The notes beneath the pieces are model-generated. The model did not search any database, was not told the DNA's origin, and worked only from the letters and a program-made list of their open reading frames with translations. The position numbers and the translations under genes are program-made. Below are positions 4,099 through 23,659 of a DNA stretch of 63,973 bases, one piece after another. Source of the DNA: Candidatus Omnitrophota bacterium (lineage in GTDB: Bacteria; Omnitrophota; Gorgyraeia; Zapsychrales; Zapsychraceae); the NCBI GenBank assembly GCA_016214285.1, contig JACROV010000012.1, forward strand, positions 1 through 63,973, written 5' to 3'. Every line of letters starts with the position of its first letter. Position 1 is the stretch's first letter.

Positions 4099-5319
4099 TT
4101 AAAAAACAACCCTTACCCCCACTTCCACCCAATTCCGGTCATAGCCGCGGGTGTCTATGTTTGAATTTACTTCAGAATATGTATACGCGAGAAACGTTTG
4201 CGCGTTCCTGGTCACCTCATAACTTAATCGCGTGCTTGCCCCTGTTTGCCTGTCGGTAATACCCTGCGCCGCGAAATCCCCCTCTCCAAAAAATACCGAC
4301 GCGGTCATTTTCAGCCGTTCCAGTAATTGCCGGCCCAAACTTAGCGCCACCCGCCATGAATCAAAAATATCAGCCGTAAATGAGCTCGGTGTGCTTGTTT
4401 TGCTATAGGACAAGCTGGCCGAATCTGTTTCATTAAAATCATCGGTCAGGGCAACAGCCGCGCTCGGCTTGGACGCGCTGCTTCCGTCAAAGGCCTCCAC
4501 AAAAGAAACCCCGGCGCGGGTGTCGATATAAAGCTGCGTTGTCAGAGAATGCCTGAAACCCGTTGCCAATGTATGGACGGCTGCCGTACCGCTCTCATCA
4601 ATATGGCGTGTGGTAAAATCATATCCCAGAAGGAAGGCCGTGGCTGAACTTTCTATATAATTCACATCAAAACCAGCGCGGTTCAATAACGAATCCCTTA
4701 TATCCTCTCGCGATGTGCTATAGTTTTCATTGCCGTAATGTCCTTGAATGGAAACGTGCTTGCTCAGATCCCTTGTGTATTCAGCATTGAATGTGTTTCT
4801 GTAGTAGCTGTAACGGCCGGTGGTCCTGCCGAAATCATCTTCAAAGCTGCGCGGCTCTTCGGAATGCACAAATTTGTTTGTGGCAGAAAAGCGGTCATAC
4901 CTGGAAAGTTCTTTTTGGAAATCAATGTTGAGGTCCTGGGAGTTGTTATTGAACGAAGGATTGTCAGCAAATAAATGCCGTGTCAAATTCCCTTCCAGCG
5001 CGAGGGTGTGCGTTTTGCCCTCCTGTTTGGCCCCTAACCCGATCAGCAAATTGGTGACATTGTCGGATTTTTTATCTTCTTTGACAAAGGTCACGTTATC
5101 ATCATAGGCAGTGGAGACAGAACCTTTGACGTCAAGATCAAGCCCGGACGAAGCTGATGCTTTTGGCGGAAAAGCAAGGAACAAACAGCAAAAAGAAAGA
5201 CACGAGTTTAATAAATATATTTTTAGGGTTATGCCTTTGATGAACAGTGCAACAGGATTTCGTGCCCATCGTATGCTGGAAGTGGTAGTCAAGGGCATAA
5301 CCCTATATATTTTTTTCAT
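4099..5319 (-). CDS. EPS-associated outer-membrane beta-barrel protein, with a 30-aa MITE-derived insertion in its signal peptide
   Basis: Probable start MKKIY at 5319, 17 nt after the upstream stop (the ORF-track start at 5628 overlaps the cupin gene). Amphipathic beta strands, YDDNV motif, C-terminal VRVVF. Confidence 0.8.
   Translation of the reverse strand: MKKIYRVMPLTTTSSIRWARNPVALFIKGITLKIYLLNSCLSFCCLFLAFPPKASASSGLDLDVKGSVSTAYDDNVTFVKEDKKSDNVTNLLIGLGAKQEGKTHTLALEGNLTRHLFADNPSFNNNSQDLNIDFQKELSRYDRFSATNKFVHSEEPRSFEDDFGRTTGRYSYYRNTFNAEYTRDLSKHVSIQGHYGNENYSTSREDIRDSLLNRAGFDVNYIESSATAFLLGYDFTTRHIDESGTAAVHTLATGFRHSLTTQLYIDTRAGVSFVEAFDGSSASKPSAAVALTDDFNETDSASLSYSKTSTPSSFTADIFDSWRVALSLGRQLLERLKMTASVFFGEGDFAAQGITDRQTGASTRLSYEVTRNAQTFLAYTYSEVNSNIDTRGYDRNWVEVGVRVVF
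5224..5305. mobile_element. MITE-A copy 1: 82 bp, 17-bp imperfect TIR, 8-bp TSD TATATTTT
   Basis: TAGGGTTATGCCTTTGA...TCAAGGGCATAACCCTA. Flanks 5216-5223 and 5306-5313 are identical. Identical to copy 2 at 8842-8923. Confidence 0.95.
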
Positions 5320-6268: not shown

Positions 6269-7555
6269 TTAAGCGTTCTTTGCGAAAAAATCCTTTAGTG
6301 CCTGTGCCAACGCCTCCAGATCCTTTTTCGTGTGCATACTGGAAACAAAAAATGCTTCCAGATCTGCCGGCGGCCAGTAAATGCCGGCGTTCAAAAGATG
6401 CTGGAATAACCGGGCGTAACGTTCTCCTCCGGAGGCGGCTTGCGCGTCAGCGTAGTTAATGACCGGTTCGTTTCGAAAGCGGATACTCATCATCGACCGG
6501 TAATGGGCGATGTGCGCCGGGATATCATGGGTTTGAAAATAGCCGTTGATGTCCTCGGCGAAGGCCGCGCAGCGGTCATTGAGCCGCTTGTAAAATGCCT
6601 CGTTCAGCAGCCGCAACCCGGTCAATCCCGCGCGCATCACGACCGGATTGCCGGAAAATGTCCCCGCCTGGTAAACGCCGCCCAAGGGAGCCAGGTTTTG
6701 CATGATGTCCTTGTGTCCACCGTAGGCGCCAACGGGAAACCCGGCGCCGATGATCTTGCCCAAACATGTCAGATCCGGCGTAACGCCATAGTCCGCTTGC
6801 GCGCAACCGGTGCTGGTACGAAATCCTGTCATCACTTCATCAAAGATCAGAATAATGCCGTATTGCTTGGTCAATTCCCTGAGCCGCCGCAGGAATTCCG
6901 GCTTGGCCGGGATAACGCCCATGTTCCCGGCAACGGGTTCAATGATCACACAGGCAATGGCATTTTTATGTTTCGCTAAAGTTTGTTCCAGAACAACAAC
7001 GTCATTATAAGGTAAACTGATGGTATTGTCGATGTGGTTTCGCGGAATTCCAAGACTTGAAGATTTTTTAAGTTGGGCCACACCGGATCCGGCCGCGGTC
7101 AGCAGGTCGTCGAAGTGGCCGTGGTAACAGCCGTCGAATTTGACGATCGTGTCCCGGCCGGTAAATCCCCGGGCCAAGCGGATGGCGCTCATCGTCGCCT
7201 CGGTACCGGAGTTGACGAAACGGATCAGCTCGATGGACGGCACTTGCGCCGTAATGTGCCTGGCAATTTCAATTTCTTCACGGGTCGTGGTACCGAAACT
7301 GGCCCCTTTTTCCAGCGTCCGTTTGGCGCTTAAGACGACATTGGGGTGCGCGTGCCCGAGGATGAGTGCCCCCCAGGACAAGCAGTAATCCGTCCAGGCG
7401 TTATTATCGTAATCATAGAGCTTGGATCCGCGGCCGTATTTCATCACTATCGGCTGGCCGCGCACGCTTTTAAAGGAACGCACGGGGCTGTTGACGCCGC
7501 CGACCAGGACTTGCTGGGCTTGCTGGAAGTATTCTTGGGAATGTTGGGTACGCAT
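6269..7555 (-). CDS. hemL: Glutamate-1-semialdehyde 2,1-aminomutase
   Basis: GGVNSPVRSF, NSGTEATMSAIRLARG, CYHGH, FDEVMTGFR, GKIIGAG (PLP Lys) and YQAGTFSGNP. Confidence 0.97.
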   Translation of the reverse strand: MRTQHSQEYFQQAQQVLVGGVNSPVRSFKSVRGQPIVMKYGRGSKLYDYDNNAWTDYCLSWGALILGHAHPNVVLSAKRTLEKGASFGTTTREEIEIARHITAQVPSIELIRFVNSGTEATMSAIRLARGFTGRDTIVKFDGCYHGHFDDLLTAAGSGVAQLKKSSSLGIPRNHIDNTISLPYNDVVVLEQTLAKHKNAIACVIIEPVAGNMGVIPAKPEFLRRLRELTKQYGIILIFDEVMTGFRTSTGCAQADYGVTPDLTCLGKIIGAGFPVGAYGGHKDIMQNLAPLGGVYQAGTFSGNPVVMRAGLTGLRLLNEAFYKRLNDRCAAFAEDINGYFQTHDIPAHIAHYRSMMSIRFRNEPVINYADAQAASGGERYARLFQHLLNAGIYWPPADLEAFFVSSMHTKKDLEALAQALKDFFAKNA

Positions 7556-7579: not shown

Positions 7580-7697
7580 TCAAATGCCCAATTTCAAATG
7601 ACAAATGAATTACCAATGCCAAATGACAAACTCACTGGAACACTTTGGCCATTCTTAATTTGGCATTAATTTGACATTGGTCATTTGGAATTTGTCA
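7580..7697. repeat. Heptamer-periodic inverted repeat H1 (TGACAAA / TTTGTCA type)
   Basis: Left arm tgtcaaa tgcccaa tttcaaa tgacaaa; right arm tttgaca ttggtca tttggaa tttgtca; between hemB and hemL. Confidence 0.8.
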
Positions 7698-8690
7698 TTA
7701 ACCTAGCCATTTCAATGCCTCTTGTGCATGATAGGTAATAATAATATCCGCCCCGGCCCGTTTGATGGACGTGAGGGTCTCCAGGACAACCTCTTTTTCA
7801 TCGATCCAGTTTTTGGCGGCTGCCGCCTTGACCATTGAATATTCGCCGCTCACGTTGTAAGCGGCAACGGGTACGGTCAATTCCCGGCGCAAGAGCGCGA
7901 CGATGTCTAAATATGCCAATGCCGGTTTGACCATCACGATATCGGCGCCTTCACAAACATCTTGCCGCGCTTCTTTAAGGGCTTCACGCCCATTGGCAGG
8001 GTCCATCTGGTACGTCGCGCGGTCGCCGAACTTTGGAGGTGATCCGGACGCTTCCCTGAATGGTCCATAATAGGCGGAAGCGTATTTGACCGCGTAGGAC
8101 AAAATGCCGACGTTGGATAAATTATTTTTGTCCAGGTTTTCCCGGATCGCCTGGACGCGGCCGTCCATCATATCTGACGGAGCGACGAAGTCAGCGCCGG
8201 CTTGCGCGTGCGCCAGTGCCATCTTGGCCAGCAGCGGAAGCGATTTGTCATTGTCGATGACGCCGCCTGTGACGACTCCGCAATGTCCGTGGCTCATGTA
8301 GGCGCACAGACATACGTCGGTTATTACCAGAAATTCCGGGAATTCTTTTTTAATTTTACGGATGACGGCAGGGATAACCGCGTCGGCGGCGTACGCCCGG
8401 CTGGCGCGGGTATCTTTGGCGGCCGGGATACCGAACAAAAGACACGCCTGGCCGCCGGCTTTACGGTAAACTTCAACGGCCTTGACCAGAAGGTCCGGCG
8501 AATACCGGAAGACCCCCGGCATCGAGACGATGGGTTCCTTCTTGTTGGTCCCTTCGACGACAAAAAAAGGCTGGATGAGATCGTCGGGCGTCAGCGTTGT
8601 CTCCCGGACGAGATTACGCAGCGTTGGCGACGCCCGCAGCCGGCGGTACCTGTTTCGTCTCTTATCTCTCATCTTGGTTTTCCCAACCAC
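7698..8690 (-). CDS. hemB: Porphobilinogen synthase (Zn-dependent); true start may be 8672
   Basis: DVCLCAYMSHGHCG, APSDMMDGRV, YGPFREA, YQMDP, MVKPALAYLD and AYNVSGEYSM. Confidence 0.97.
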   Translation of the reverse strand: MVGKTKMRDKRRNRYRRLRASPTLRNLVRETTLTPDDLIQPFFVVEGTNKKEPIVSMPGVFRYSPDLLVKAVEVYRKAGGQACLLFGIPAAKDTRASRAYAADAVIPAVIRKIKKEFPEFLVITDVCLCAYMSHGHCGVVTGGVIDNDKSLPLLAKMALAHAQAGADFVAPSDMMDGRVQAIRENLDKNNLSNVGILSYAVKYASAYYGPFREASGSPPKFGDRATYQMDPANGREALKEARQDVCEGADIVMVKPALAYLDIVALLRRELTVPVAAYNVSGEYSMVKAAAAKNWIDEKEVVLETLTSIKRAGADIIITYHAQEALKWLG

Positions 8691-8739
8691 AATTCTACCA
8701 CCCTACCGCGAAAAGGCAATTGTTGCCGCACGCGGCAAT

Positions 8740-9165
8740 TTAGAAAGAAGTGGAAAGTATGACGTGGGTGGTCGCAAACTTTTCCTGTTTGGTCTTCGGC
8801 TTGATAATAATTTCGACATCCCGGTCCAAAGAATTCAACAATAGGGTTATGCCTTTGATGAACAGTGCAACAGGATTTCGTGCCCATCGTATGCTGGAAG
8901 TGGTAGTCAAGGGCATAACCCTATTCAACAATTCAAAAAGATGATCCAGAGAGAACATGCTGAGTTTGCCGTTCATAAGGCAGGAAACTTTGGGTTGAGG
9001 AATATCAAGTAATTCTGAAGCGGCTTTTTGGGTCAAACCACGATTTTTGATAATTTCTGCTACGCGGGACATAATCTGAGCGCGTGCCATAACTCTTTCA
9101 GGATGGGCAACCCCGATATCGACAAAAATATTATCACTTCCTCGATGGGCTTTTTCTTTATTCAT
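8740..9165 (-). CDS. XRE-family HTH antitoxin (HigA-like), with a 30-aa in-frame MITE insertion
   Basis: GSDNIFVDIG, LTQKAASELLDIPQPKVSCLMNGKLSMFSLDHL. Removing 90 nt restores LFELLNSLDRDVEIIIKP. Confidence 0.85.
   Translation of the reverse strand: MNKEKAHRGSDNIFVDIGVAHPERVMARAQIMSRVAEIIKNRGLTQKAASELLDIPQPKVSCLMNGKLSMFSLDHLFELLNRVMPLTTTSSIRWARNPVALFIKGITLLLNSLDRDVEIIIKPKTKQEKFATTHVILSTSF
8842..8923. mobile_element. MITE-A copy 2: 82 bp, 8-bp TSD TTCAACAA
   Basis: Identical to 5224-5305. Flanks 8834-8841 and 8924-8931 are identical to each other and differ from the copy-1 flanks. Confidence 0.95.
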
Positions 9166-9359
9166 GATTTGTTCACCTCATTTATAATTCCGGCCCCTCC
9201 GGCCCCTTTTAACGGCCTGGCAGTTGCCGGCTTTTGACCTCTCTGAACCTCAAAGAGCGCAAACCCCACATCCTGCCTTACTTCTTCAGGAAGCTCCTTA
9301 AGATTTTCCCTGGATGAGCCAATCCAACTTAATGGCTTTAATGCTTGTTCTTCGTTCAT
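9162..9359 (-). pseudogene. Truncated RelE/HigB-like (Gp49-type) toxin
   Basis: KPLSWIGSSRENLKELPEEVRQDVGFALFEVQRG..PLKG.GGAG matches the N-terminal half of the family. Only 65 aa; the usual YR..Y and VLHAFQKK half is absent. Overlaps the antitoxin start (ATGA). Confidence 0.75.
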
Positions 9360-9464
9360 AATATGCCATATTTGGTATAATTGTGCAACTCCCTTTTGTC
9401 TGCATTATTTGCACTATTTTATTCGCCCTGTTCATATCCATGCACTTTCTTCAAAATACTCATG

Positions 9465-9499
9465 ACCGTCGCGAGCCACTGTAACATACGGTCAGCCGC
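9465..9499. repeat. 35-bp direct repeat, copy 1 (candidate att site)
   Basis: ACCGTCGCGAGCCACTGTAACATACGGTCAGCCGC, identical at 17178-17212; imperfect similarity extends to about 65 bp. Confidence 0.9.
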
Positions 9500-9656
9500 G
9501 GGTATCAACAAAAACTTTCTTTTTTGTTATCTGATTGTTAATCATAGGATTGTATAAAATGTTAGCGTCATGCAGAGGTTGACAAAATGTTCAAAATTTT
9601 CCAAAACATCGTACTCGTTCATCGGTTCCCCTATTCATTATTTGTTAACAGCAGTA

Positions 9657-9695
9657 AATCAACGACCCTGCGCCAAGAGCGCAGGGTCGTTGATT
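9657..9695. terminator. 17-bp perfect hairpin (terminator or REP/IS605-end-like)
   Basis: AATCAACGACCCTGCGC-caaga-GCGCAGGGTCGTTGATT, followed by a T-run on the plus strand. Confidence 0.55.
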
Positions 9696-9762
9696 AGTCC
9701 CTTTTTTGTTGGTCGTTGAGTGGTTTTAATTCACCAGCCGCTTAGAGCTTTAATACGACGCA

Positions 9763-10446
9763 TTAAGTTGTATCCAGCAAATCCAATAATGCCTTCGTAA
9801 ATTTAGACATATTTCCTTTTTCTAAATATTCTTGTGAAACATCCAATTTGCCATCCGAATCATCGCCATACTTTTTCCAGACCCCATGAAGCAAACGAAA
9901 ATCGCCTTCTTTTAAAGATTTCCGGTTCCGGATTAATAAATTCATAAACCGGTCATGACCATCTTCATTTTCTCCATCTTCCGCTTCCTCATCATAATTC
10001 TCATTGGAGCGATGCCCGCGGCTATCTTCGAAATATTCATGGCTCATACCTGGATTCAGACGGCAATGGATCGCTATAACGACACGGTCATTCTTGGCTT
10101 CAACCCGAATGCCCAGATCGTCTTCCCCGGCAAATTCATATTTCTTGATTTCCTCGATGACAGGTTGATCGGCATAAAAACCAAAGGCGATTGTCCACCA
10201 GTCATAACTTTCAGAATACATTACATCATAATATTTCTTCATCAGCGGTTCCCAACCGCCGGGTAAATCGTTCCAGTCGCCATGATAGATAAAACTCACT
10301 TTCCTCTGCGCAGGGTTTGCCCGGCTGGATAATTTGGCGACGGCCTGCCGTTGAGTCTTTTCCAAAGGTTTATCGATGGCATAAAACTCATAGGAGGTTG
10401 AACTGTGGTCGGGAGTAAACCCTTTACGTACACTGAATATTTTCAT
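9763..10446 (-). CDS. Hypothetical acidic protein co-transcribed with the radical SAM gene
   Basis: 227-aa ORF 25 nt downstream of the rSAM stop; N-terminal RKGFTPDHSSTSYEF; D/E-rich linker. Confidence 0.75.
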   Translation of the reverse strand: MKIFSVRKGFTPDHSSTSYEFYAIDKPLEKTQRQAVAKLSSRANPAQRKVSFIYHGDWNDLPGGWEPLMKKYYDVMYSESYDWWTIAFGFYADQPVIEEIKKYEFAGEDDLGIRVEAKNDRVVIAIHCRLNPGMSHEYFEDSRGHRSNENYDEEAEDGENEDGHDRFMNLLIRNRKSLKEGDFRLLHGVWKKYGDDSDGKLDVSQEYLEKGNMSKFTKALLDLLDTT

Positions 10447-10470
10447 GGCCGCCTGCCTCTTTTTCTTGGA

Positions 10471-11961
10471 TCATCCATTCCGGATAATCAAATCCAGCCA
10501 GCGTCCGGTCCTGCCCAACTGTTCACGTGGAGGCAGGACCGGATCAGGACAGCCGGGATCTCCCCCCATACCGTCCATGGCAAAAATACGGCATCCCCCA
10601 CAACTCTCTTTGGCCAGACACTGGCCGCAGCAACTGTTCTTGAATATTTTTTGTGCTCGAAATGACCGGTATTTGCGCAAGGGCCTGGATTCATTCCACA
10701 ATTTTCCAGGATTGGCTTCCATAATATTGCCGCCATAGGCCTGATCATGCACAAGTTGAGAGCAAGGATAAACAGAGCCATCTGCCGCAATAGCCATGAT
10801 TCTATCTGCAGCCACACATCCCTTAAGGCCACACTCTGCGGATACCATCTGCGAAAGGTGACGCTGCACAAAACTTAAGGCGCAATCAACGCGAATACAA
10901 AGATGCGGATTATCGGCAAGAATTCTATGAAGAATATGGTGAAGCCCTTTTAACTGATGCGGCTCCGGCACTTCAGCTTTCCAACGCTTAATACTTTGGG
11001 GTGGTTTGTACCGAAGAAAAATAATGCGTTCAAATCCAATATCGCTTAACATGCCGACAAGTGGAATGAGGTTCTCCACGGCCGTTTTATTTAAAATGAC
11101 ACTGGCTCCGTGCCTGATCTGATATTTCTGAGTTTTAAGGAAATAATTATCCAACTGCTCTTTGTATCGTCCGCAATGGGTATTCAACAGTGCCTCATTC
11201 CAAATGCCAACTTGCAGATGACGGATAGATGGCAGAGTTTGATCCAGAATATCCATCGGAGTATTTAGTTTTGCGGTTGTCAGATGGACAACCAGGCCCC
11301 GCCGATCGGCATGGCGTACGAGCTGGGGCAAATCCTGACGGGCAAAAGGTTCGCCGCCCCCGATCGCCAGTTGAAACACCTTCCAGTCCGCTAGTTTGTC
11401 AATCAATCCTAAAGCCTCAGCCGTGTTCAATTCCTTACGCGAATGCGAAAGTCTTTCAGCGTAACAATCAGGACAATGCGCGTCACAACGATAGGTCACC
11501 GCCCAATGAACTGTTTCGGGAGCAGAGAGCCGGGGGGATTTAAATTGGGGATGGCCTATTTGATCAGTCATAGCTGGTGCCATCAAAGCACTTGGATCAA
11601 CAAACTCAATCACTTTTAAATCCAGCAACTGGCGTAGTGCGTCGTTAAAAGAATGAATAACCCGGTCATTGTCTGAACTTTTGTGGCCCAAATAAATTAA
11701 CACATCAGGAATGCGTTGCGGCCCGCTCTCAAGAAAATGCAAAAACCGGAATATATTTTTATCGACTTCAAGCGTACAGCCCTGATGATCGTCAAAAATA
11801 AGTCCTCCAAAATATTCCGGCCGTAAGCGGATTCCACGGGCGAGACGAATCGCCCGAGCATCATCGATAGTTTGGTTATTCATGTCTTTGCACTTTTCCA
11901 GGGAAACCCCATCCTCCAGGCGACGCTTTAAGGGTCCGATAGAATTTAAACGCGCAAGCAT
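10471..11961 (-). CDS. Radical SAM/SPASM protein with an N-terminal RRE (PqqD/MftB-like) domain
   Basis: CDAHCPDC, GGGEP, SPASM motifs C...DGSVYPC and CGQC....CGGC...DPGC; N-terminal LRPEYFGGLIFD. Confidence 0.9.
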   Translation of the reverse strand: MLARLNSIGPLKRRLEDGVSLEKCKDMNNQTIDDARAIRLARGIRLRPEYFGGLIFDDHQGCTLEVDKNIFRFLHFLESGPQRIPDVLIYLGHKSSDNDRVIHSFNDALRQLLDLKVIEFVDPSALMAPAMTDQIGHPQFKSPRLSAPETVHWAVTYRCDAHCPDCYAERLSHSRKELNTAEALGLIDKLADWKVFQLAIGGGEPFARQDLPQLVRHADRRGLVVHLTTAKLNTPMDILDQTLPSIRHLQVGIWNEALLNTHCGRYKEQLDNYFLKTQKYQIRHGASVILNKTAVENLIPLVGMLSDIGFERIIFLRYKPPQSIKRWKAEVPEPHQLKGLHHILHRILADNPHLCIRVDCALSFVQRHLSQMVSAECGLKGCVAADRIMAIAADGSVYPCSQLVHDQAYGGNIMEANPGKLWNESRPLRKYRSFRAQKIFKNSCCGQCLAKESCGGCRIFAMDGMGGDPGCPDPVLPPREQLGRTGRWLDLIIRNG

Positions 11962-12013
11962 CCCCTTTTTCCCTGGCGCATTTGATTATCCCCATGGTTG
12001 ATCTTGCTTTTTT

Positions 12014-14026
12014 TCATGCGGGTATCTCCTGAGGTTTTACCATCGATAGTTGATCTGTAAAAAACTTTTCCACGTCATCAAACTCAGAGGTCTGGCGGCA
12101 AGCCGGCAGGGAGTTAAGAAAATCTTTCCCATAACCTTTAGTCCTGATTCGTGGATCGAGAATCACGACGATCCCTTTATCGGTTTGCCGCCGTATAAGC
12201 CTGCCGAATCCCTGGCGCGTCATAATGACCGCCCGGGGGAGCAGATAATGGGTGAAGGCATTCTTGCCCAGGGCCTCCCATCGCTCCATTTTGGCCTCGG
12301 TAATGGGATCATCAGGGACGGCAAAGGGAAGTTTCCAGATGACCACACACTCCAGCGCCCGGCCCGGGACATCCACCCCCTGCCAGAACGTGCTTGTTCC
12401 TAACAGAACAGCATGCTCGTTTTTGCGGAATTTCTCAATCAATGAGTGCGGCGGCAGATCCCCTTGTTTCATTATGGATAAATGGGGAAACGCCCGCGTC
12501 AGCGCCAGCCCCACGCGGACCATGAGTTCGACCCTGGTAAATAAAATAAACATCCTTCCCTGCATTAAGGTAACAAGTCGTTTTGTCTCATCAAACGCTT
12601 TTGCGTAATATTCTGTGGACTCCTGGCGGCCCCCCGGATCCGGCATAGATTGAGGTAAATATAAAAGAACGTTTTTAGCATAATCAAATGGAGAATCCAG
12701 CAGCAATTCGCGGACTTGATCGTCCAATCCTAAACAACTTTTTAGTAAATCGAACCGGCCGTTCGCGGCAAGGGTGGCCGAGACAAAAATCGCAGGCTCA
12801 AAGCGCTCAAGGACTTTGTGTTTAAAGACCGTTGCTATCTCCAGCGGGGCTTTGTTGAGGGAACAGCGAGGGGCCCTTGATCTTTTCTCGATCTCCACCC
12901 AGTAGACACAATTGGATTCCTGGATATTTAAAATAATCTCGATCTGATTCGCCATCTCCTGAAATTTCTTGATCATCGCCAGCCATTCCTTTTCGTCTTC
13001 TTTGGACTGGACGTTTTTTAAAATATCCAGGAAGAACGCGATCATGTCATTGAGAGGGCCCTGTAAAGTATTGCGCACAAGTCCTTTTTGTCGAATTCTT
13101 GTTTTTTGCGATTCTATACCTAGTTTATCCAGGATTTCTGAAAAAAAGACATGAGCGGCTTCTCTTGTTTTGTCGGCCAGCTTCTTTCCTGTTTTAATAT
13201 CATGTCTGGACAATCCGATACGTCTTAGAAGACCGCCTTCATTGGACGGGTTGTGCAGAGAATCCAAATGAAATTTCAGCAGGTCATTACTGATTTTATA
13301 ACCCAAATATTCTGTAGCGACATTTTCCAGCGTATGGGCCTCGTCAAATATCACGGCGTCAAAATCCGGCAGGACTTTGCCGCCGGAGGCGATATGCGCG
13401 AAGAAGATGTGATGGTTGGTGACGAGAATATCGGCCTGTTCTATTTCTTTTCGCTGTTTATAATAAAAACATTCCTCAAAATAAGGACTTTTGCGCCGCA
13501 TGCACAGATCGCTGTCGCGGTTAAATTGGCCCCATATCCCGGGACTCGGCTCAAAGGGTAAAACAGAAACAAGGCCGGTGGGAGTGGAGTTGATCCACTG
13601 ACTAATCTTTCTTAATTCTTCGTTGTCTTTGGATGACGTAAAAAGTTCAGGGAGGCTGTTTTTGTGAAACCTTCTCTTGCATAAAAAATTCTGCGAGCCC
13701 AGGCAGAGGGCGTATTGAAAATCAATATTTAACAGCTTTTTCAATCGCGGGAGCTCTTTTTGCATAAGCTGCTCCTGGAGAGCTTTGGTAAAAGTGGAGA
13801 CGGCGATTTTTTTGCCGGTCCGTTGAGACCATTCAATAGCCGGCAGAAGATAGGCCAGGGTTTTGCCAACGCCTGTCCCGGCCTCGATGACGGCATGGCG
13901 GTTGTTTTCAAAGGACTGCCTGATCTGCTCGGCCATCGCTATTTGCTGGGGGCGGGATTCAAAACCTTTGAGATGGCTTAGCTGAACATTCTTTGAGGGG
14001 CCGAACACACGAGAAAAAATATTCAT
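12014..14026 (-). CDS. dinG: DinG/YoaA-family ATP-dependent helicase
   Basis: EAGTGVGKT, Fe-S cysteines, DEAH, SATL, SPFDY, FWQGVDVPG, LPFAVPDDP and QGFGRLIR. Confidence 0.92.
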   Translation of the reverse strand: MNIFSRVFGPSKNVQLSHLKGFESRPQQIAMAEQIRQSFENNRHAVIEAGTGVGKTLAYLLPAIEWSQRTGKKIAVSTFTKALQEQLMQKELPRLKKLLNIDFQYALCLGSQNFLCKRRFHKNSLPELFTSSKDNEELRKISQWINSTPTGLVSVLPFEPSPGIWGQFNRDSDLCMRRKSPYFEECFYYKQRKEIEQADILVTNHHIFFAHIASGGKVLPDFDAVIFDEAHTLENVATEYLGYKISNDLLKFHLDSLHNPSNEGGLLRRIGLSRHDIKTGKKLADKTREAAHVFFSEILDKLGIESQKTRIRQKGLVRNTLQGPLNDMIAFFLDILKNVQSKEDEKEWLAMIKKFQEMANQIEIILNIQESNCVYWVEIEKRSRAPRCSLNKAPLEIATVFKHKVLERFEPAIFVSATLAANGRFDLLKSCLGLDDQVRELLLDSPFDYAKNVLLYLPQSMPDPGGRQESTEYYAKAFDETKRLVTLMQGRMFILFTRVELMVRVGLALTRAFPHLSIMKQGDLPPHSLIEKFRKNEHAVLLGTSTFWQGVDVPGRALECVVIWKLPFAVPDDPITEAKMERWEALGKNAFTHYLLPRAVIMTRQGFGRLIRRQTDKGIVVILDPRIRTKGYGKDFLNSLPACRQTSEFDDVEKFFTDQLSMVKPQEIPA

Positions 14027-14031
14027 AAATT

Positions 14032-16476
14032 TTAATGCCCTGTTCCATTCAATATCTCTTTGACATCATAGCCCAACATCCTATATGTCTTTAAACGCCG
14101 CTGATACATTCTGGTTAATACAGAAACGTTACGATCAACATAATCATAAATCCGGATGTCCTGCTTATCCTTGTGATACCGGTGAAGGCGTCCGGCATAC
14201 TGAACAATCTTGCCTTTAAACGAACTCGGCATGGTCAGAAATAGTGTATCCAAACGCGGCGCATCAAATCCCTCTCCGATATATGATCCGGTCGCCAGGA
14301 TAACCTTCCGGCAATCCTCAAGACTCTCTTTTATTCTTTCAAAAGCTTCCCGCCGCGCTTTCTGCCTGACTCCGCCATGCAGCCGGAATAAAACTTCAAC
14401 TTTACTCTCCAACAACTTCGCTAAAATCTCTAAATGCTCGCGTCTTTCTGTCAGAATCAGCGGGAACCTTCCTTCCCCCAATGACTCAACAACGTCCTGA
14501 ACGATTAGTTGATTCCTTGTCATATCTTCTATCATTCGGCTTGAGACATCCTGTATCTTAATATCGTCATTCCACGCATGTTCAAAGTCCGTGACACGCG
14601 GGATAACCCATGAAGCTGAAATATGCGCAGAGAGGTTTTTCTGTTTAATGCGGTGAGCAATCGGCCCGCACTGCATATGAATAATTGGCTGATGACCGTC
14701 CCGGCGATATGGTGTTGCGGTTAGCCCTAAAACATATTTTGCCTTTACCTGTGACAGAACCTTCTCAAATGAAACGGCACCCACGTGATGACATTCATCG
14801 ACAATAACAAAACCGTACTCTGCGATGCGGTCGTCAACCCCATCAGCCAAATCCATACTTTGAAACATGGCGATATCGATAACCCCATTCGACTTATTCT
14901 TGCCGCCGCCGATCTGACCGATGTCCTTTTTGTCGATACCTAAAAATGAGGCAGTCTGCAAACGCCACTGATCCATCAACGGTTTTCGGTGCACAAGAAT
15001 AAGTGCATTTGTTTTACGCTTGACGATAGATGCGATTGCTAACACTGTTTTCCCTGTTCCGGGCGGCGCGACAAAAACACCAACGTCCGACTCAAGAATG
15101 GCCTCTAACGCTTCTTCCTGTTCTTCATTGAGCGTGCCATCAAAAACAAAATCAACTTTTTTGCCTATGCCCCGTTTGTCCTCAACATTTATCCGGACGT
15201 TATACTCATCCAGCAAAGCCTTCATATCATCCAAGCACCCTCGAGGCAATGAAAGATAACCATCAACAATTTCCGCGCAACAAATAACCCGCGGTGTCGC
15301 ATGAGTTGAAAAACGCATCTTCTGCTTTCTATAAAACTCCGGATTTTGAAACGCGGCCAGATGTTTGAGCTGATTGAACAACAGTGACGGGCCACTTCCG
15401 GTCTTAATGTAAATTCGATTAGCGAGAACAACATCCAATGCTTCTGGCAGTTCCCTGATGTCAGCTTTAAATCGTCGCTTACCGGATGGTAGACGCATCC
15501 ATGGCTCATCATTTTCTTCAACCGGACTTTGGCGAACCGCGATAATTTGTCCGGTTCGTGAAGCCTCTTCAATAAAAGTTTCCACGTCCCGATGAGACAT
15601 CTTCTTAACAGACGACAAAAAAGTCCATTGATCTGAATAAGGCACACCATGTGCATCGATAAAAAGACTGTTGCCGTTGACCATCGCTTCTTTTTGAAAC
15701 GGCAAAGCAATCAGATTCCCGAATCCGCCTTTGGGCATCGTATCCTGATTCGGGAATAATCTGTCGTAACTTTTCATATCGATCTGATATCGCTTGGCCA
15801 TAGTTTTAGTAATGATCGAAGTCCCTAAACGCCTGGCTAAAACCGCGGGAATCTCTTCACTAAAGAAAATCCAAACATGCCCTCCGTTTCCCGAACGAGA
15901 TCGTTCAACCGCCGCGGGAATTTTTTCTTCGCTGCACGTCCTCATCATCGCCCGAATGTCATCCATCCAATGCTCTTTATCAAAATCAATCGCAAGAAAA
16001 TAGCAATGCTCATTTTTCAACATTGGATAAATAGCCATGACTTGAGCGCCTGTCAAATGTTGTTTGATAGCGATCTCATCCGTTAGAAGAAATCCTTGAT
16101 TGGGACATTCAGAACATTTGATGGCGGGCTTACGACATAAGACGCGATCCCATTCGTGCTTACAAACCGGGCTGTACCCACGCATGCCTGTGCGATTATT
16201 AATCCACAGCTTGGCATAAACATCCCCGCGGCCCCGGAAACAGGTTTTGAACAACGCAATTTTATCGTCTAAAAGCTGATTGTTATTGACCTTTTCCTTT
16301 CCAATGTCAAATCTCCGATGCCTGTTACTGACGGATTTTGGAGATTTGACATTTTGTTTGGCAGGGAGAAGGTCAATAACAGCAGTGGTTGGTTGAGGCG
16401 CGGTAATTTGCGGCCGGCAGGCTCCCTTCGGGAGGAGGGATTGCACGATTGGCAAGGCATTGATTCTTGAGGCCAT
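14032..16476 (-). CDS. AEP (TOTE-type) primase-like domain fused to a superfamily-2 helicase
   Basis: FRGRGDVYA, HLTG, LAIDFD, ERSRSGNGGHVW, FPNQD and GNLIALP (AEP); GTGKT, DECHH, LTATP, GEGFD and QYAGRLHR (SF2). Confidence 0.9.
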   Translation of the reverse strand: MASRINALPIVQSLLPKGACRPQITAPQPTTAVIDLLPAKQNVKSPKSVSNRHRRFDIGKEKVNNNQLLDDKIALFKTCFRGRGDVYAKLWINNRTGMRGYSPVCKHEWDRVLCRKPAIKCSECPNQGFLLTDEIAIKQHLTGAQVMAIYPMLKNEHCYFLAIDFDKEHWMDDIRAMMRTCSEEKIPAAVERSRSGNGGHVWIFFSEEIPAVLARRLGTSIITKTMAKRYQIDMKSYDRLFPNQDTMPKGGFGNLIALPFQKEAMVNGNSLFIDAHGVPYSDQWTFLSSVKKMSHRDVETFIEEASRTGQIIAVRQSPVEENDEPWMRLPSGKRRFKADIRELPEALDVVLANRIYIKTGSGPSLLFNQLKHLAAFQNPEFYRKQKMRFSTHATPRVICCAEIVDGYLSLPRGCLDDMKALLDEYNVRINVEDKRGIGKKVDFVFDGTLNEEQEEALEAILESDVGVFVAPPGTGKTVLAIASIVKRKTNALILVHRKPLMDQWRLQTASFLGIDKKDIGQIGGGKNKSNGVIDIAMFQSMDLADGVDDRIAEYGFVIVDECHHVGAVSFEKVLSQVKAKYVLGLTATPYRRDGHQPIIHMQCGPIAHRIKQKNLSAHISASWVIPRVTDFEHAWNDDIKIQDVSSRMIEDMTRNQLIVQDVVESLGEGRFPLILTERREHLEILAKLLESKVEVLFRLHGGVRQKARREAFERIKESLEDCRKVILATGSYIGEGFDAPRLDTLFLTMPSSFKGKIVQYAGRLHRYHKDKQDIRIYDYVDRNVSVLTRMYQRRLKTYRMLGYDVKEILNGTGH

Positions 16477-16540
16477 TCAGGACGGCGATTTGCTCATCAA
16501 TCTTTTTGATTTTGGTTTCCAGCGCAGTCCGTTGTTCCAT
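16373..16540 (-). CDS. 55-aa ORF, possibly the frameshifted original N-terminus of the AEP-helicase
   Basis: MEQRTALETKIKKIDEQIAVLNGLKNQCL (coiled-coil-like) overlaps the main ORF in another frame across a GC-rich palindrome at 16411-16436. Confidence 0.4.
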   Translation of the reverse strand: MEQRTALETKIKKIDEQIAVLNGLKNQCLANRAIPPPEGSLPAANYRASTNHCCY

Positions 16541-16619
16541 ATTTATTATTCAGTTTTGCCTTATTGAGAAGGTCTCTAGTGTACTGAGTCGGAAGTCTCT
16601 TTGCTTTTGAGTCGCCCGT

Positions 16620-17071
16620 CGATAAATGACTTTCGCGGACACGCTCGCTAAGCGGCCAAATGTCAAGAAGCGTTAGACTCACTACACTAGTACTTTGTCA
16701 GAAAAGTTTTTAATAGTTGATTCCTCTGAACCTTTGAGGAAATCAACTATTAAAAACAAAATTGACAAAGTACTAGCGCTACAATTTTATGCAGAGCTTC
16801 GGGGGGAAAAAGTGGCCGGTCGGCCACTTCTGTCTTTGTCCTTGAGTCCTTTGATTCGCTCTTTTGCAAATCGTTCTCGCCAGCCAAGCACTGTATTGAC
16901 GGCGATTCCCGGTTTTCGAGCGATCGTTTTATTGCCCAAACCTTTCGCGGCCTGAAGAATGATTTTCGCCCGGCAAACATCTCGTTGCGCTGATTTGCTC
17001 TTCCGTACAACTGACTCAAGGGTTTTATACTCATTGTTTGTTAACTTGATCTTTATATTTGGTTTTAACAA
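16620..17071 (-). pseudogene. Decayed IS630-family transposase (HTH part only), frameshifted and interrupted by MITE-B
   Basis: RAKIILQAAKG..NKTIAR....NTVLGWRERF...GLKD..RSGRP, continuing in other frames as PEALHKIVAL and WPLSERVRE; no DDE domain. Confidence 0.85.
16687..16776. mobile_element. MITE-B: 90-bp near-perfect hairpin with CTAG at both ends
   Basis: CTAGTACTTTGTCA...TGACAAAGTACTAG terminal IR plus an internal IR TTTTTAATAGTTGATT / AATCAACTATTAAAAA. Confidence 0.85.
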
Positions 17072-17177
17072 GGCATCCTCACTCCTTTCGTTTGTGATTC
17101 TGCCTTATTATCCAACACATGCAAGAACGGTTCAAGAACTTTTGAAACAATCTAGTACTTTCTTTAAAATGCTCAAT

Positions 17178-17212
17178 ACCGTCGCGAGCCACTGTAACAT
17201 ACGGTCAGCCGC
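17178..17212. repeat. 35-bp direct repeat, copy 2
   Basis: Identical to 9465-9499. Confidence 0.9.
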
Positions 17213-17257
17213 AGGTCTCGATGAAAATTGTGTCCCGAATGGCATACTCGTTGGGAG

Positions 17258-17431
17258 TTATTGCGTTTCCTGGCGCTGTCTTCTTAGTTCAAGCCGGATG
17301 GCCTTCAAGCGCCTGCTGGACGTGCGCAGCATGAATTCATGCATCTGGTGAAGCCATTCCAGTTTCTTTTGGGGTGATATTTTCATAAATCGTCGAAGAC
17401 GCTGGTCGTGAGTTTCCCATTCAAAGATCAT
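17258..17431 (-). CDS. 57-aa small protein, probable partner of the nucleotidyltransferase remnant
   Basis: MIFEWETHDQRLRRFMKISPQKKLEWLHQMHEF...; start overlaps the upstream stop (ATGA); below the ORF-track cutoff. Confidence 0.55.
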   Translation of the reverse strand: MIFEWETHDQRLRRFMKISPQKKLEWLHQMHEFMLRTSSRRLKAIRLELRRQRQETQ

Positions 17432-17589
17432 TTGTGCCGCCCCTGGAGTATTTTTATCCGTTTCAGGTCTTCAATGTCCAGCTTATCCACCGGCCGGTTG
17501 GACTTTTTCTTAAGTGCCATACCTCCCACCAAAACGTATTTTACTTTTTGTTTCTGAAATTCCCGAAAGATTTCCTCGTAGATGATCAA
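17428..17589 (-). pseudogene. Internally deleted nucleotidyltransferase-like gene (53 aa)
   Basis: N-terminal IYEEIFREFQKQKVKYVLVGGMA is joined directly to C-terminal LKKKSNRPVDKLDIEDL; the catalytic DxD middle is missing. Confidence 0.6.
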
Positions 17590-19673
17590 TGTGTATCCCT
17601 CAATTCCTCAAAATCCGTGTAGCCGGCCTCGCGTAAAAAAGCGCTGGTCACGGCCCCGCGGCTTGAGATTTTCCAATACCGTGGAATAGCCCCGTACGCG
17701 GCCAGGAAGTTACGCGCCGTCGACGGGCTTGTAAAGACAACCTGGTCGATCTCTGCCTCCGGTACCGGTAGCGGGCGTTTGGCTGGCGGCGTGTTGTCGT
17801 AGACGGTTAATTCATCCACCCGGGCGCCCCGCCCGGTCAATTTTTGTTTTAAGTACGGGTTCGGCAGCGCCGAGCGCGGGAACAGGATCTTTCTGCCGCG
17901 CAGTTCCAGTTTCTCGGTCATCTCTTGAAAAAGCCCCTCGCTTGTTTCGACCCGGGCGACGAGTGAAACAGGAACACCTTCTTGCGCTAACGCCTTGGCC
18001 GTTGCCCGTCCGATGGCGACAAATGTTTTTTGAGTTAAATTTTCTACCCTGTATCCTTCCCCGGCCAGCAGCGCGAAAAAGTACTTCACACCGAATTTGC
18101 TGGTGAAAAGGATTATATCGTAACGGCCGAGATTTTTCAGCAACGTTTTTATTCGGCCGGCGGCCGGCGGCGCCGGCGTGATCTCGATCATCGGGAAAGG
18201 GATCACCTCGCCGTGCGCGCGGGACCGCTTCGGGTCGGTGCCGGTGTAAAGGATACGTTTGTACTGTCGCGTTGCAAGGCCTTCGTGGTAGAATTTGAGG
18301 GTTTCCCCGACGATGATCAAAACCGGCGGCTCCAGCGGATTTTCTTTGATCCTCTGTCGGACGTCTGCCAGCGTGCCGCTGACGATTTCTTCCCGCGGAC
18401 AAGTCCCTTTTGAAATGACCATCACGGGCGTTTGCTTTGACCAGCGCTTTGCGTCAAGTGATTCGACAATTTTGTCGAGTTTAGTTAATCCCATCAAAAA
18501 AACTAACGTGTCAGCTTGTGGAATATCCAGGGGGATCGGATTTTGTTCGTCCTCGTCATGTTTGTAGCCGCTGATAAAGGCCACGGTCGCGGCCACACCG
18601 CGGGCGGTGAGCGGGATACCCAGCCGGGACGGGATCCCCACGGCGGAGCTGATCCCTGGAATTACTTCCACCTGGATGTGGTAGCCGCGCAGGTATTCGA
18701 TCTCACCGGCGCCGCGCCCGAAAACCAATGGGTCGCCGCCTTTTAAGCGGACGACCGTCTTGCCGGCCGTCGCTTTTTGACGGATGAGCCGGTTGAGTTC
18801 TTCCTGCGGCATGGCGTGACTGCCTTTACGTTTGCCCGCGTAAATTTTCTCGGCATTTGGGGCGTGATCGAGAAGTTGTGCGGGAATAAGATAATCATAA
18901 AAAACGCAGCCGGCGGATTTAAGTGCCGCGACGCCTTTAATGGTGATTAATTCCGGATCACCAGGACCGGCGCCGACTAAAAAGACGCGGCCGTAACCGC
19001 GGCGCGCGTCGATCGCGGCAAAGAGTTCGCGTAGCGCTGTATCGGCGGCGCGGCCGACGATCACCAGCTGTCCTTGCAGCGGCGCCGCTTCCCACGGCAT
19101 GATATTTTGAATATATTTTTCCAGGCCTAGGCGCTTGAGGGCCGCGGTGGCGACAACAAGGCCGTCGCAATAACCATCGCGCATTTTCTGGATGCGTTCT
19201 TCAATTGTCCCGCGAATGTCCACGGTTTCCAGTTTCGGATCGAGCGTTTTGATTTGGCTTTGGCGCAAGCTGCTGCTGGTGGCGACTTTTGATCCTGCCG
19301 GCAGCCGGTCGAAGGTCGTTTTCCCGATAAAGGCATCGGTTTCATCGAGGCTGCGGGTGAGGGCGAAAATGGCCAGCCCTTTGCGCAATGTCCGCGGAAG
19401 ATCTTTGGCGCTGTGGACGGCCACGTCGATCTCGCCGGTCAACAGGGCGTCATCGAGGGTATCCGTAAAGAAATCATCGGCCGGGCTGGCGGTCAACGAA
19501 ACGGTTTTATCTTTATCGCCCCGCGTGGAATACGTCTTGCGATCAAAGGAAACTTCAATTCCTTTTTTCTTAAGAAGCGCTTGCGCTTCATCTACCTGGA
19601 CCAGCGCGAGTTTGCTGCCCCGTGAACCGGCCTTAATTTTCTGGATACAAGATGCCATAGGTTTAATAACCAA
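17586..19673 (-). CDS. hemC-cobA-hemD: Triple fusion: short HemC + uroporphyrinogen-III methyltransferase (CobA) + HemD
   Basis: GSRGSKLALVQ, VHSAKDLP and DIRG (HemC); LVGAGPGDPELIT and VRLKGGDPLVFGRG (CobA); FTSKFGV, FPRS and FTSPST (HemD). Confidence 0.9.
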   Translation of the reverse strand: MVIKPMASCIQKIKAGSRGSKLALVQVDEAQALLKKKGIEVSFDRKTYSTRGDKDKTVSLTASPADDFFTDTLDDALLTGEIDVAVHSAKDLPRTLRKGLAIFALTRSLDETDAFIGKTTFDRLPAGSKVATSSSLRQSQIKTLDPKLETVDIRGTIEERIQKMRDGYCDGLVVATAALKRLGLEKYIQNIMPWEAAPLQGQLVIVGRAADTALRELFAAIDARRGYGRVFLVGAGPGDPELITIKGVAALKSAGCVFYDYLIPAQLLDHAPNAEKIYAGKRKGSHAMPQEELNRLIRQKATAGKTVVRLKGGDPLVFGRGAGEIEYLRGYHIQVEVIPGISSAVGIPSRLGIPLTARGVAATVAFISGYKHDEDEQNPIPLDIPQADTLVFLMGLTKLDKIVESLDAKRWSKQTPVMVISKGTCPREEIVSGTLADVRQRIKENPLEPPVLIIVGETLKFYHEGLATRQYKRILYTGTDPKRSRAHGEVIPFPMIEITPAPPAAGRIKTLLKNLGRYDIILFTSKFGVKYFFALLAGEGYRVENLTQKTFVAIGRATAKALAQEGVPVSLVARVETSEGLFQEMTEKLELRGRKILFPRSALPNPYLKQKLTGRGARVDELTVYDNTPPAKRPLPVPEAEIDQVVFTSPSTARNFLAAYGAIPRYWKISSRGAVTSAFLREAGYTDFEELRDTH

Positions 19674-19866
19674 GAAACAAGGTACAAATAAAATTCAAAT
19701 CCCAAGCACCAAACTACAAACAATTTACAAATTCCAATGACCAAAATTATCAAATCTGATGATAGTTAAAAATATTTGTCATTTGGATTTAGGTATTGTG
19801 TATTGTTTGTGATTTGGAATTTGTTTATTGGATATTCTTTGGTTATTGTTTCCTGGTAATTGGGAT
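19665..19866. repeat. Heptamer-periodic inverted repeat H2 (CAAA/TTTG type)
   Basis: ..ttcaaa tcccaag caccaaa ctacaaa.. paired with ..tttgtga tttggaa tttgttt attggat.. Confidence 0.8.
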
Positions 19867-19867
19867 T

Positions 19868-20308
19868 TTATTTATACAGGTGCTCCAGTTCGATTTTAAG
19901 CGAATCCAGGCTCAAACAAACATCCCGGAAAAGAAATATCAGCGCGAGAATAAAGCAGGCGAGGCTTGCCGTGAAGAATATTTTGATGAGCGCGATCAGC
20001 TGGATGTTGAAGGCGAGCGTTGAGAACAGCATCAGCATGATGGAACTGACGAAGAACATGCTGACGGCGACCAGCCCGATGGCGGTCTGCAAAATACGGC
20101 AGCGCCGGTAAATGATATCGATCTGCGCGCGTATGCTGGGGGTCTCCTTGGCCGGGGCGGTTTTAAGCTCAGCGGTAAACGTACGGATACGGTCTATACT
20201 GCGGCCCAGGCGGTTGGTCATGGATAAAAGCACCAGCCCCAGTCCGGAAATAAAAATGCATGGCGCGATGGATGCCTGCAGACTTTGGATGAGATTTTCG
20301 GTTGGCAT
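19868..20308 (-). CDS. DUF2721-like membrane protein
   Basis: SIAPCIFISGLGLVLLSMTNRLGRSIDRIR; three hydrophobic segments. Confidence 0.8.
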   Translation of the reverse strand: MPTENLIQSLQASIAPCIFISGLGLVLLSMTNRLGRSIDRIRTFTAELKTAPAKETPSIRAQIDIIYRRCRILQTAIGLVAVSMFFVSSIMLMLFSTLAFNIQLIALIKIFFTASLACFILALIFLFRDVCLSLDSLKIELEHLYK

Positions 20309-20369
20309 ATCTTTTGTGTATAACCTAGAATTGCAAAATTGTCAATCTTTCACTGGAAGAAGCCTGCTT

Positions 20370-20503
20370 TAAATCCGAAGCACGAAATCCGAAATACGAA
20401 ACAAATAAAAAATTCAAAATCTAAAATATAAAACAACCTGTTTTGATATTTGAATTTAAAGTTTTGGATTTGTTTCGTGCTTCGATATTCGGATTTCGAA
20501 TTT
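20370..20503. repeat. Heptamer-periodic inverted repeat H3 (CGAA/TTCG type)
   Basis: aaatccgaagcacgaaatccgaaatacgaaacaaat ... atttgtttcgtgcttcgatattcggatttcgaattt. Confidence 0.85.
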
Positions 20504-22626: not shown

Positions 22627-22712
22627 GATTGGTAAATGGTTAATGGTAAATGGTTATTGGTTAATGGATTCTTTGACTATTAACCATTTACTATGTACCA
22701 TTAACCATTAAC
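22627..22712. repeat. Heptamer-periodic inverted repeat H4 (TGGTTAA/TTAACCA type)
   Basis: tggtaaa tggttaa tggtaaa tggttat tggttaa ... ctattaa ccattta ctatgta ccattaa ccattaa. Confidence 0.85.
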
Positions 22713-23527: not shown

Positions 23528-23650
23528 TTTAGAATTCGAAGCACGAAATTCGAAATCCGAAACAATATCTAAATTCTAAACGCTCAGTTTAGGATATTAG
23601 AATTTAGAATTTTAGGTTTGTTTCGTGCTTCGTGCTTCGAATTTCGTGTT
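23528..23650. repeat. Heptamer-periodic inverted repeat H5 (CGAA/TTCG type)
   Basis: ttcgaagcacgaaattcgaaatccgaaac ... gtttcgtgcttcgtgcttcgaatttcg. Confidence 0.85.
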
Positions 23651-23659
23651 TATATGTCT

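Follow-up and report, generated by a model that had tools for sequence, protein, structure and literature searches.

A two-domain HemC without the cofactor-anchoring domain 3, fused to CobA and HemD in a Candidatus Omnitrophota bacterium

A self-assembled dipyrromethane, linked to the protein through a cysteine, has been described as a constant of hydroxymethylbilane (HMB) synthase, HemC (PMC7959689, PMC3945110, PMC13564367). In the single-site model of Sato each cycle moves the growing chain back by one ring. When the hexapyrrole is reached, the four product rings lie in the substrate site and sites 1-3, with the cofactor rings in the loosely binding sites 4-5 against domain 3 (PMC7959689). 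Short HemC sequences are already in the databases under the ordinary name, and an NCBI model exists for the chlamydial members (PRK01066), which are named by homology. Our literature search, covering few subscription papers, turned up nothing published on a two-domain or chlamydial HemC, on a missing cofactor site or on C242S. CobA-HemD fusions occur in Firmicutes and anaerobes. A HemC-HemD fusion of Leptospira is cited in bioRxiv 10.1101/2021.02.09.429727.

We analysed a window of 63,973 nucleotides from Candidatus Omnitrophota bacterium (assembly GCA_016214285.1, contig JACROV010000012.1, positions 1-63,973 of the forward strand), which carries on its minus strand a hemC*-cobA-hemD triple fusion gene (17586..19658), where HemC* denotes the HemC module. 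The ORF (17586-19673, minus strand) is open as far as a TTG at 19673, from which 695 codons are counted; a more probable start is the ATG at 19658, which gives a protein of 690 aa, whose residues are numbered from it. The first-pass annotation had claimed that the HemC part lacks domain 3 and the anchoring cysteine and runs straight into CobA, and this is borne out by Pfam, by TIGR00212 and by structural superposition. In Pfam, PF01379 matches over model positions 1-206 of 207 within the HemC* module (residues 1-219; 19002..19658, minus strand), PF00590 begins 15 residues after it and PF02602 comes last, and PF03900 (domain 3) was not found in the fusion protein even at E<=1. The alignment to TIGR00212 is restricted to positions 1-218 of 293, solved HemC sequences match as far as E. 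coli residue 220, and the module as modelled by AlphaFold (pLDDT 94) superposes on residues 3-222 only of E. coli HemC 1ah5 (Z 23.3, rmsd 1.7, 203 aligned); the next structural matches have the periplasmic-binding-protein fold (Z 10-13). The HemC part consists of HMB-synthase domains 1 and 2 only, and domain 3, Cys242 and Arg232 are missing from it. The CobA/SUMT module (about residues 223-458; 18285..18992, minus strand) scores 253 bits against a TIGR01469 cut-off of 185 and also folds like SUMT 1s4d, NirE and CysG-A in Foldseek, and the HemD uroporphyrinogen-III synthase module (about residues 466-685; 17604..18263, minus strand) matches PF02602 at model positions 10-215 of 231 (140 bits, E 8.5e-41). 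The Foldseek list for the full-length model recovers the separate modules only. In this model the HemC-CobA linker has a pLDDT of 95-97 (pTM 0.71), and linker residues D217, R219 and G223 are invariant; the prediction hints at a fixed packing of HemC* on CobA. A homodimer prediction for the HemC* module scored 0.00, which gives no answer either way.

Apart from the two-domain protein, the assembly (1.82 Mb, 88% complete) has no HemC: a profile search that matched both families in 11 of 14 control genomes gave a single PF01379 match and zero PF03900 matches, and no ORF of the assembly contains the domain-3 cysteine motif by regular expression. A second hemC, the search for which had been proposed as a check on the first reading, or a split one was found neither by profile nor by cysteine-motif search. 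The incompleteness of the assembly is not the explanation, because HemC is present in 33 of the 45 family genomes and domain 3 in only 5, which encode ordinary HemC proteins of 297-331 aa. The other 28 of these 33 HemC-bearing genomes have no domain 3 anywhere; hemB is present in 27 of them and hemA in 24. Among the 12 family genomes without HemC, 11 also lack hemB, a co-occurrence that is a pattern and not a statistic, kin genomes not being independent. In a sample of 301 genomes of the phylum, HemC was found in 157 and domain 3 in 81; 12 of the 76 HemC-bearing genomes without domain 3 were read, and all are of the short type. One phylum genome holds both HemC types, with the short copy on a 3-kb contig. 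Moreover, the complete chromosome of Chlamydia crocodili carries a single short hemC and zero domain 3, together with hemA, hemB, hemE and hemH.

The first-pass annotation had suggested that short HemC forms may exist in other PVC bacteria, and they turn out to be present across PVC bacteria and beyond. The closest homologues by name belong to Ca. Omnitrophota, and most of the best 120 homologues have the same triple-fusion architecture. Stand-alone short HemC proteins (about 220 aa) occur in Chlamydiota, Omnitrophota, Elusimicrobiota and others; further short forms are joined to HemD alone, to CobA alone or to unrelated domains. In several genomes the partner is a PF01451 (LMWPc/ArsC-like) or an HD domain (P0133, P0149, P0172, P0216, P0231; P0198, P0238, L148). 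A quick maximum-likelihood tree separates 72 short rows from 24 three-domain rows by a branch with SH-aLRT 93, which is compatible with a single short clade; the query fusion groups with fusions of Bacteroidales, Termititenax and spirochaetes (97 on the same quick tree), and fusions originate more than once. Because fusions arise repeatedly on the tree and short stand-alone forms exist, the loss of domain 3 appears to be older than the triple fusion and independent of it. The fusion is a later, optional arrangement; as the cause of the loss it is ruled out, stand-alone short forms being common and fusions having arisen several times.

The surroundings of the short genes also differ. In relatives (including locus L032) hemB and then hemL directly follow the fusion gene, the chlamydial stand-alone gene sits behind rnc-radA, and at locus L039 a stand-alone HemC* fills the hemC slot of a sirC-hemA-hemC-cobA-hemB-hemL-reductase operon; no neighbour gene is common to all the operons seen. 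In the sirohaem operon of L039, hemD was not seen. In an Elusimicrobiota locus (L037), a cysteine-free short hemC lies amid sulfate-assimilation and Fe-S genes, with zero other hem genes within 7 kb.

Residues were counted among 222 short homologues in E. coli numbering, with the list of substrate-site and site 1/2 residues taken from the site table of PMC7959689. The substrate-site residues R11, S13, Q19, S81, D84, R149, G150, R155 and F62 and the site 1 residues K83, R132, A170, R176 and G199 are each conserved in 221-222 of 222; R11 is present in 221, and Q19, D46, F62, S81, K83, D84, S129, R132, R149, R155, A170, R176 and Q198 in all 222. N151 is mostly Thr. The query itself holds R11, S13, Q19, S81, R149, R155 and the catalytic Asp84, which is its Asp86 in HSAKD (19401..19403, minus strand), in agreement with the claim of the first-pass annotation that VHSAKD and the other arginine motifs remain: D84 is found in 222 of 222 and R132, R149, R155 and R176 are invariant. 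The reported replacement of TSSLRRQ by TSSSLRQ is likewise real and corresponds to L130S plus R131L, by which the cofactor-ring arginine pair R131/R132 is broken, R132 being kept and Leu131 (19266..19268, minus strand) replacing the Arg131 that binds cofactor ring c1. R131 is Arg in 28/28 canonical and 87/96 stand-alone short proteins, whereas 0/126 fused proteins have Arg at this place and most have Leu (84), Ile (23) or Val (13), and the lid-loop lysines K55 and K59 are also lost in the fusion lineage. An E. coli HemC with R131L cannot bind the cofactor and is inactive (PMC3945110). Ser103 (19350..19352, minus strand) replaces E. coli Arg101, which is Arg in 28/28 three-domain and 1/222 short proteins. 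The human counterpart of this residue, Arg116, forms a salt bridge to Glu250 of domain 3 (PMC10577081), so that its loss in the short forms follows from the absence of the domain-3 partner and speaks against provision of domain 3 by another protein. It is also evident that G60 has become Asp or Asn in 221/222 short homologues and T154 has become Glu in 213/222, which places new conserved acids, Asp60 and Glu154, near the lid and the cleft.

A conserved replacement cysteine was not found in the alignment of the 222 short homologues, where Cys occurs in 80-89/222 at the best columns; 19 modules contain no Cys, and 12 of 96 stand-alone short proteins are entirely Cys-free. A conserved replacement cysteine within the module is thus rejected, and the earlier view of a variant HemC without a covalent Cys anchor stands, its activity being probable.

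Judging from conservation and genomic context, HemC* very probably makes the bilane, and it is the sole candidate for this step in genomes that encode the preceding and the following steps. With somewhat better than even confidence, we further consider the module to be an active two-domain HMB synthase without a covalently anchored dipyrromethane. This reading is the simplest: HemC* has kept the product-ring binders, and its losses fall on parts that serve the cofactor, namely domain 3 and the Cys loop, the lysines of the lid and, in the fusion lineage, R131. The first porphobilinogen (PBG), bound non-covalently in the cleft, would prime each cycle, and Asp84/Gln19 would deaminate every incoming PBG, the chain moving by one site per step until the substrate site and sites 1-3 hold four rings. 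Without passing through a hexapyrrole, the bilane would then exit on the side that is closed off by domain 3 in other enzymes, and the lineage-specific acids Asp60 and Glu154 are candidates for removal of the ring-A amine or for the stop at four rings. The fused HemD would close the ring to uroporphyrinogen III, which could be methylated by CobA (sirohaem branch) or pass to HemE (haem branch). Several published results count against a non-covalent start: in the human enzyme C261 and R149 (E. coli C242 and R131) admit no substitution (PMC10577081), domain 3 is considered to limit chain length (PMC7959689), and the canonical apoenzyme is regarded as unstable (PMC7907807). R131L cuts both ways, since R131 also contacts product rings on their way through site 2 and its loss could mean weak catalysis; the loss leans towards no retained cofactor.

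Other explanations have to be weighed against this reading. An assembly error or a decaying truncated gene is scarcely credible, and has already been refuted for the whole family by the homologue junctions, the genome counts and the residue conservation. The missing hemA and the interrupted operon of this strain would fit decay, but the identical junction occurs in >100 homologues and in the contig of an independent study, which crosses the HemC/CobA junction, and a contig of the probable source run spans 17412-20399 with zero differences. A crude pairwise count, affected by saturated dS between distant sequences, gives dN/dS values of 0.09-0.13 in the HemC part, 0.09-0.20 in the CobA part and 0.19-0.33 in the HemD part; the HemC* value of about 0.1 indicates purifying selection, and the short forms stand together on one side of the branch in the quick tree. 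An active enzyme could also, as the first-pass annotation had proposed as one option, work with a non-covalent primer, retaining its dipyrromethane permanently and cleaving the hexapyrrole as usual. Most of the c1/c2-ring binders of the resting holoenzyme (K83, D84, S129, R132, R155, R176) are indeed kept, and R131 is retained by most stand-alone short forms; we nevertheless regard this as unlikely, as the rings would reach the loose sites 4-5 at the hexapyrrole stage, where nothing holds them untethered and without domain 3, and the fusion lineage has lost R131 and the lid-loop K55/K59.

The primer might instead be anchored covalently elsewhere, by a non-Cys nucleophile of domains 1-2 or by a Cys from a partner protein or from the fused CobA. 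Candidate residues K85, S83, H82, S129 and D86 are invariant and line the cleft, C251 of the CobA part is present in 95/105 fusions, and the linker confidence and pTM of the full-length model suggest that HemC* may pack on CobA. Canonical enzymes, however, also keep these residues invariant, for non-covalent roles that are known; there is no PF03900 gene in trans, and the domain-3 contact R101 is gone; stand-alone forms and HemD-only fusions have no CobA, and the operons seen share no partner gene. Such an anchor is accordingly improbable. It is rather improbable, too, that the module binds PBG or oligopyrroles without being a bilane synthase, as a carrier, a regulator or the maker of a shorter or amino-ended product finished elsewhere. 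Domains 1-2 do have the periplasmic-binding-protein fold, and the absence of C242 together with R131L is the natural equivalent of two inactivating changes; yet the catalytic D84, Q19 and all substrate-site arginines are invariant, the genomes hold no other HemC, and the presence of HemC tracks hemB almost one to one.

As for the rest of the pathway in this strain, hemB (porphobilinogen synthase; 7698..8690, minus strand; PRK09283, 485 bits), which directly follows the fusion in relatives, and hemL (glutamate-1-semialdehyde aminomutase; 6269..7555, minus strand; TIGR00713, 565 bits) are encoded within the window; the assembly also has hemE, hemN, a HemY/G-type oxidase and hemH, as well as a NirB nitrite reductase, a sulfite-reductase-like haemoprotein and a CbiX/SirB-type chelatase. 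The first-pass annotation had also supposed that the fusion could channel PBG to precorrin-2. This is unsupported, because the haem branch (HemE, HemN, HemY/G, HemH) needs free uroporphyrinogen III, and the fusion partners vary or are absent among the homologues; a plausible advantage of the fusion would be that the unstable bilane stays close to HemD. The reported absence of hemA from the window is correct, and it extends to the whole 88% complete assembly and to that of the sister G036 (93% complete). Where two genus mates have gpsA-hemA-hemH, a small MoaD-like gene takes the place of hemA in this genome (contig C76 28762-29079, locus L131) and in G036 (L130). In another genus mate hemA lies at a different site, and an assembly gap in the present genome is possible because the counterparts of its neighbours are near a contig end; a true loss with uptake of ALA (ALA auxotrophy) is the possible alternative. 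An ALA synthase replacing hemA was rejected, since the best TIGR01821 match falls short of the cut-off and, lying in a biotin cluster, looks like BioF. A PF00745 search gave no match in the assembly, nor even in the genus mates that have hemA, and so carries no weight. The SirC/CysG N-terminus was not found in this genome or in four relatives (G036, G038, G024, G047); in these five genomes CobA and a CbiX/SirB-type chelatase are present, a precorrin-2 dehydrogenase was not found, and sirohaem-type reductase domains are present in four family genomes of the five. With hemA and a recognisable SirC missing from the assembly, pathway flux in this strain is not certain. The ferrochelatase frame (L131 2080-3438, C76) has about 100 extra N-terminal residues of hydrophobic look with no Pfam match, a feature common to the genus mates.

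The operon is interrupted here by a low-GC block (0.45-0.48) of 8.7 kb between the fusion and hemB (8700..17240, ends approximate), which is absent from G036, G037, G038 and L032 and from the strain of run X5, a contig of which joins 8457 to 17206 with 1159 letters between. The block contains an HTH gene, an uncharacterised ORF of 227 aa, a radical SAM/SPASM protein, a DinG-type helicase, an AEP primase-helicase that carries the TOTE conflict-system domain PF22548, and an IS630-like HTH fragment. Most of the block lies between the copies of a 71-nt direct repeat (87%; 9444-9514 and 17157-17227), which may mark an integration site. We also observed an 83-nt element bounded by terminal inverted repeats and flanked by TA-rich target duplications. 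It represents a very recent MITE burst, because its >50 copies in the assembly are nearly all 100% identical. Its two copies in the window, at 5224-5306 in a beta-barrel ORF and at 8842-8924 in the HTH gene, are both in frame and encode the same 27-residue peptide. AT-rich imperfect palindromes of short 7-nt-like units are found in the intergenic regions of many genes, at 7583-7699, 19665-19848, 20370-20498, 22630-22712 and 23533-23652.

Taken together, this enzyme and its hundreds of short relatives, those of Chlamydia included, probably assemble the tetrapyrrole chain by a route that has yet to be described. The broader proposition, to which we give about even chances, is a widespread class of cofactor-free tetrapyrrole polymerases in which a bare two-domain binding-protein fold counts and joins four PBG with neither a covalent nor a retained primer. 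If true, Chlamydiota, about half of the HemC-bearing Omnitrophota and some Bacteroidales would depend on this class alone for haem and sirohaem, and the chlamydial enzyme would differ in mechanism from the human one. The two-domain form could then resemble the ancestor of the three-domain enzyme, either direction of change being possible. A selected natural family without the cofactor bears on the purpose of the cofactor, on the stop at four rings and on how the first bilane was made before any holoenzyme existed. A one-chain enzyme from PBG to uroporphyrinogen III or precorrin-2, if active, may also suit haem or B12 engineering.

Compared with the canonical HMB synthase (E. coli HemC 1PDA/1AH5, B. 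megaterium 4MLQ and human HMBS; TIGR00212; PF01379 plus PF03900), HemC* shares the fold of domains 1-2 (rmsd 1.7 over 203 residues), the catalytic Asp84, the substrate-site and most ring-binding residues and the place in the pathway. It differs in the absence of domain 3, Cys242 and Arg232, in the loss of Arg101, Arg131 and Lys55/Lys59, in the changes of Gly60 to Asp and Thr154 to Glu, and in being fused to CobA and HemD. The chlamydial short HemC (NCBIfam NF002202/PRK01066, a 241-position model) resembles the query in its two-domain length without domain 3, in Asp60 and in the loss of Arg101; it lies on the same side of the quick tree and is the sole HemC of its genome. Unlike the query, it is a stand-alone protein encoded behind rnc-radA and mostly keeps Arg131. 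Against the PRK01066 cut-off of 251 bits the query scores 169 and C. crocodili 400, which places the query in a different subfamily of the same wider lineage. The CobA-HemD fusions of Firmicutes and anaerobes carry, as the query does, consecutive uroporphyrinogen-III enzymes on one chain. Consecutive enzymes are likewise joined in the HemC-HemD protein of Leptospira cited in the preprint. In contrast to both kinds of fusion, the query joins three enzymes; its HemC part is of the two-domain type.
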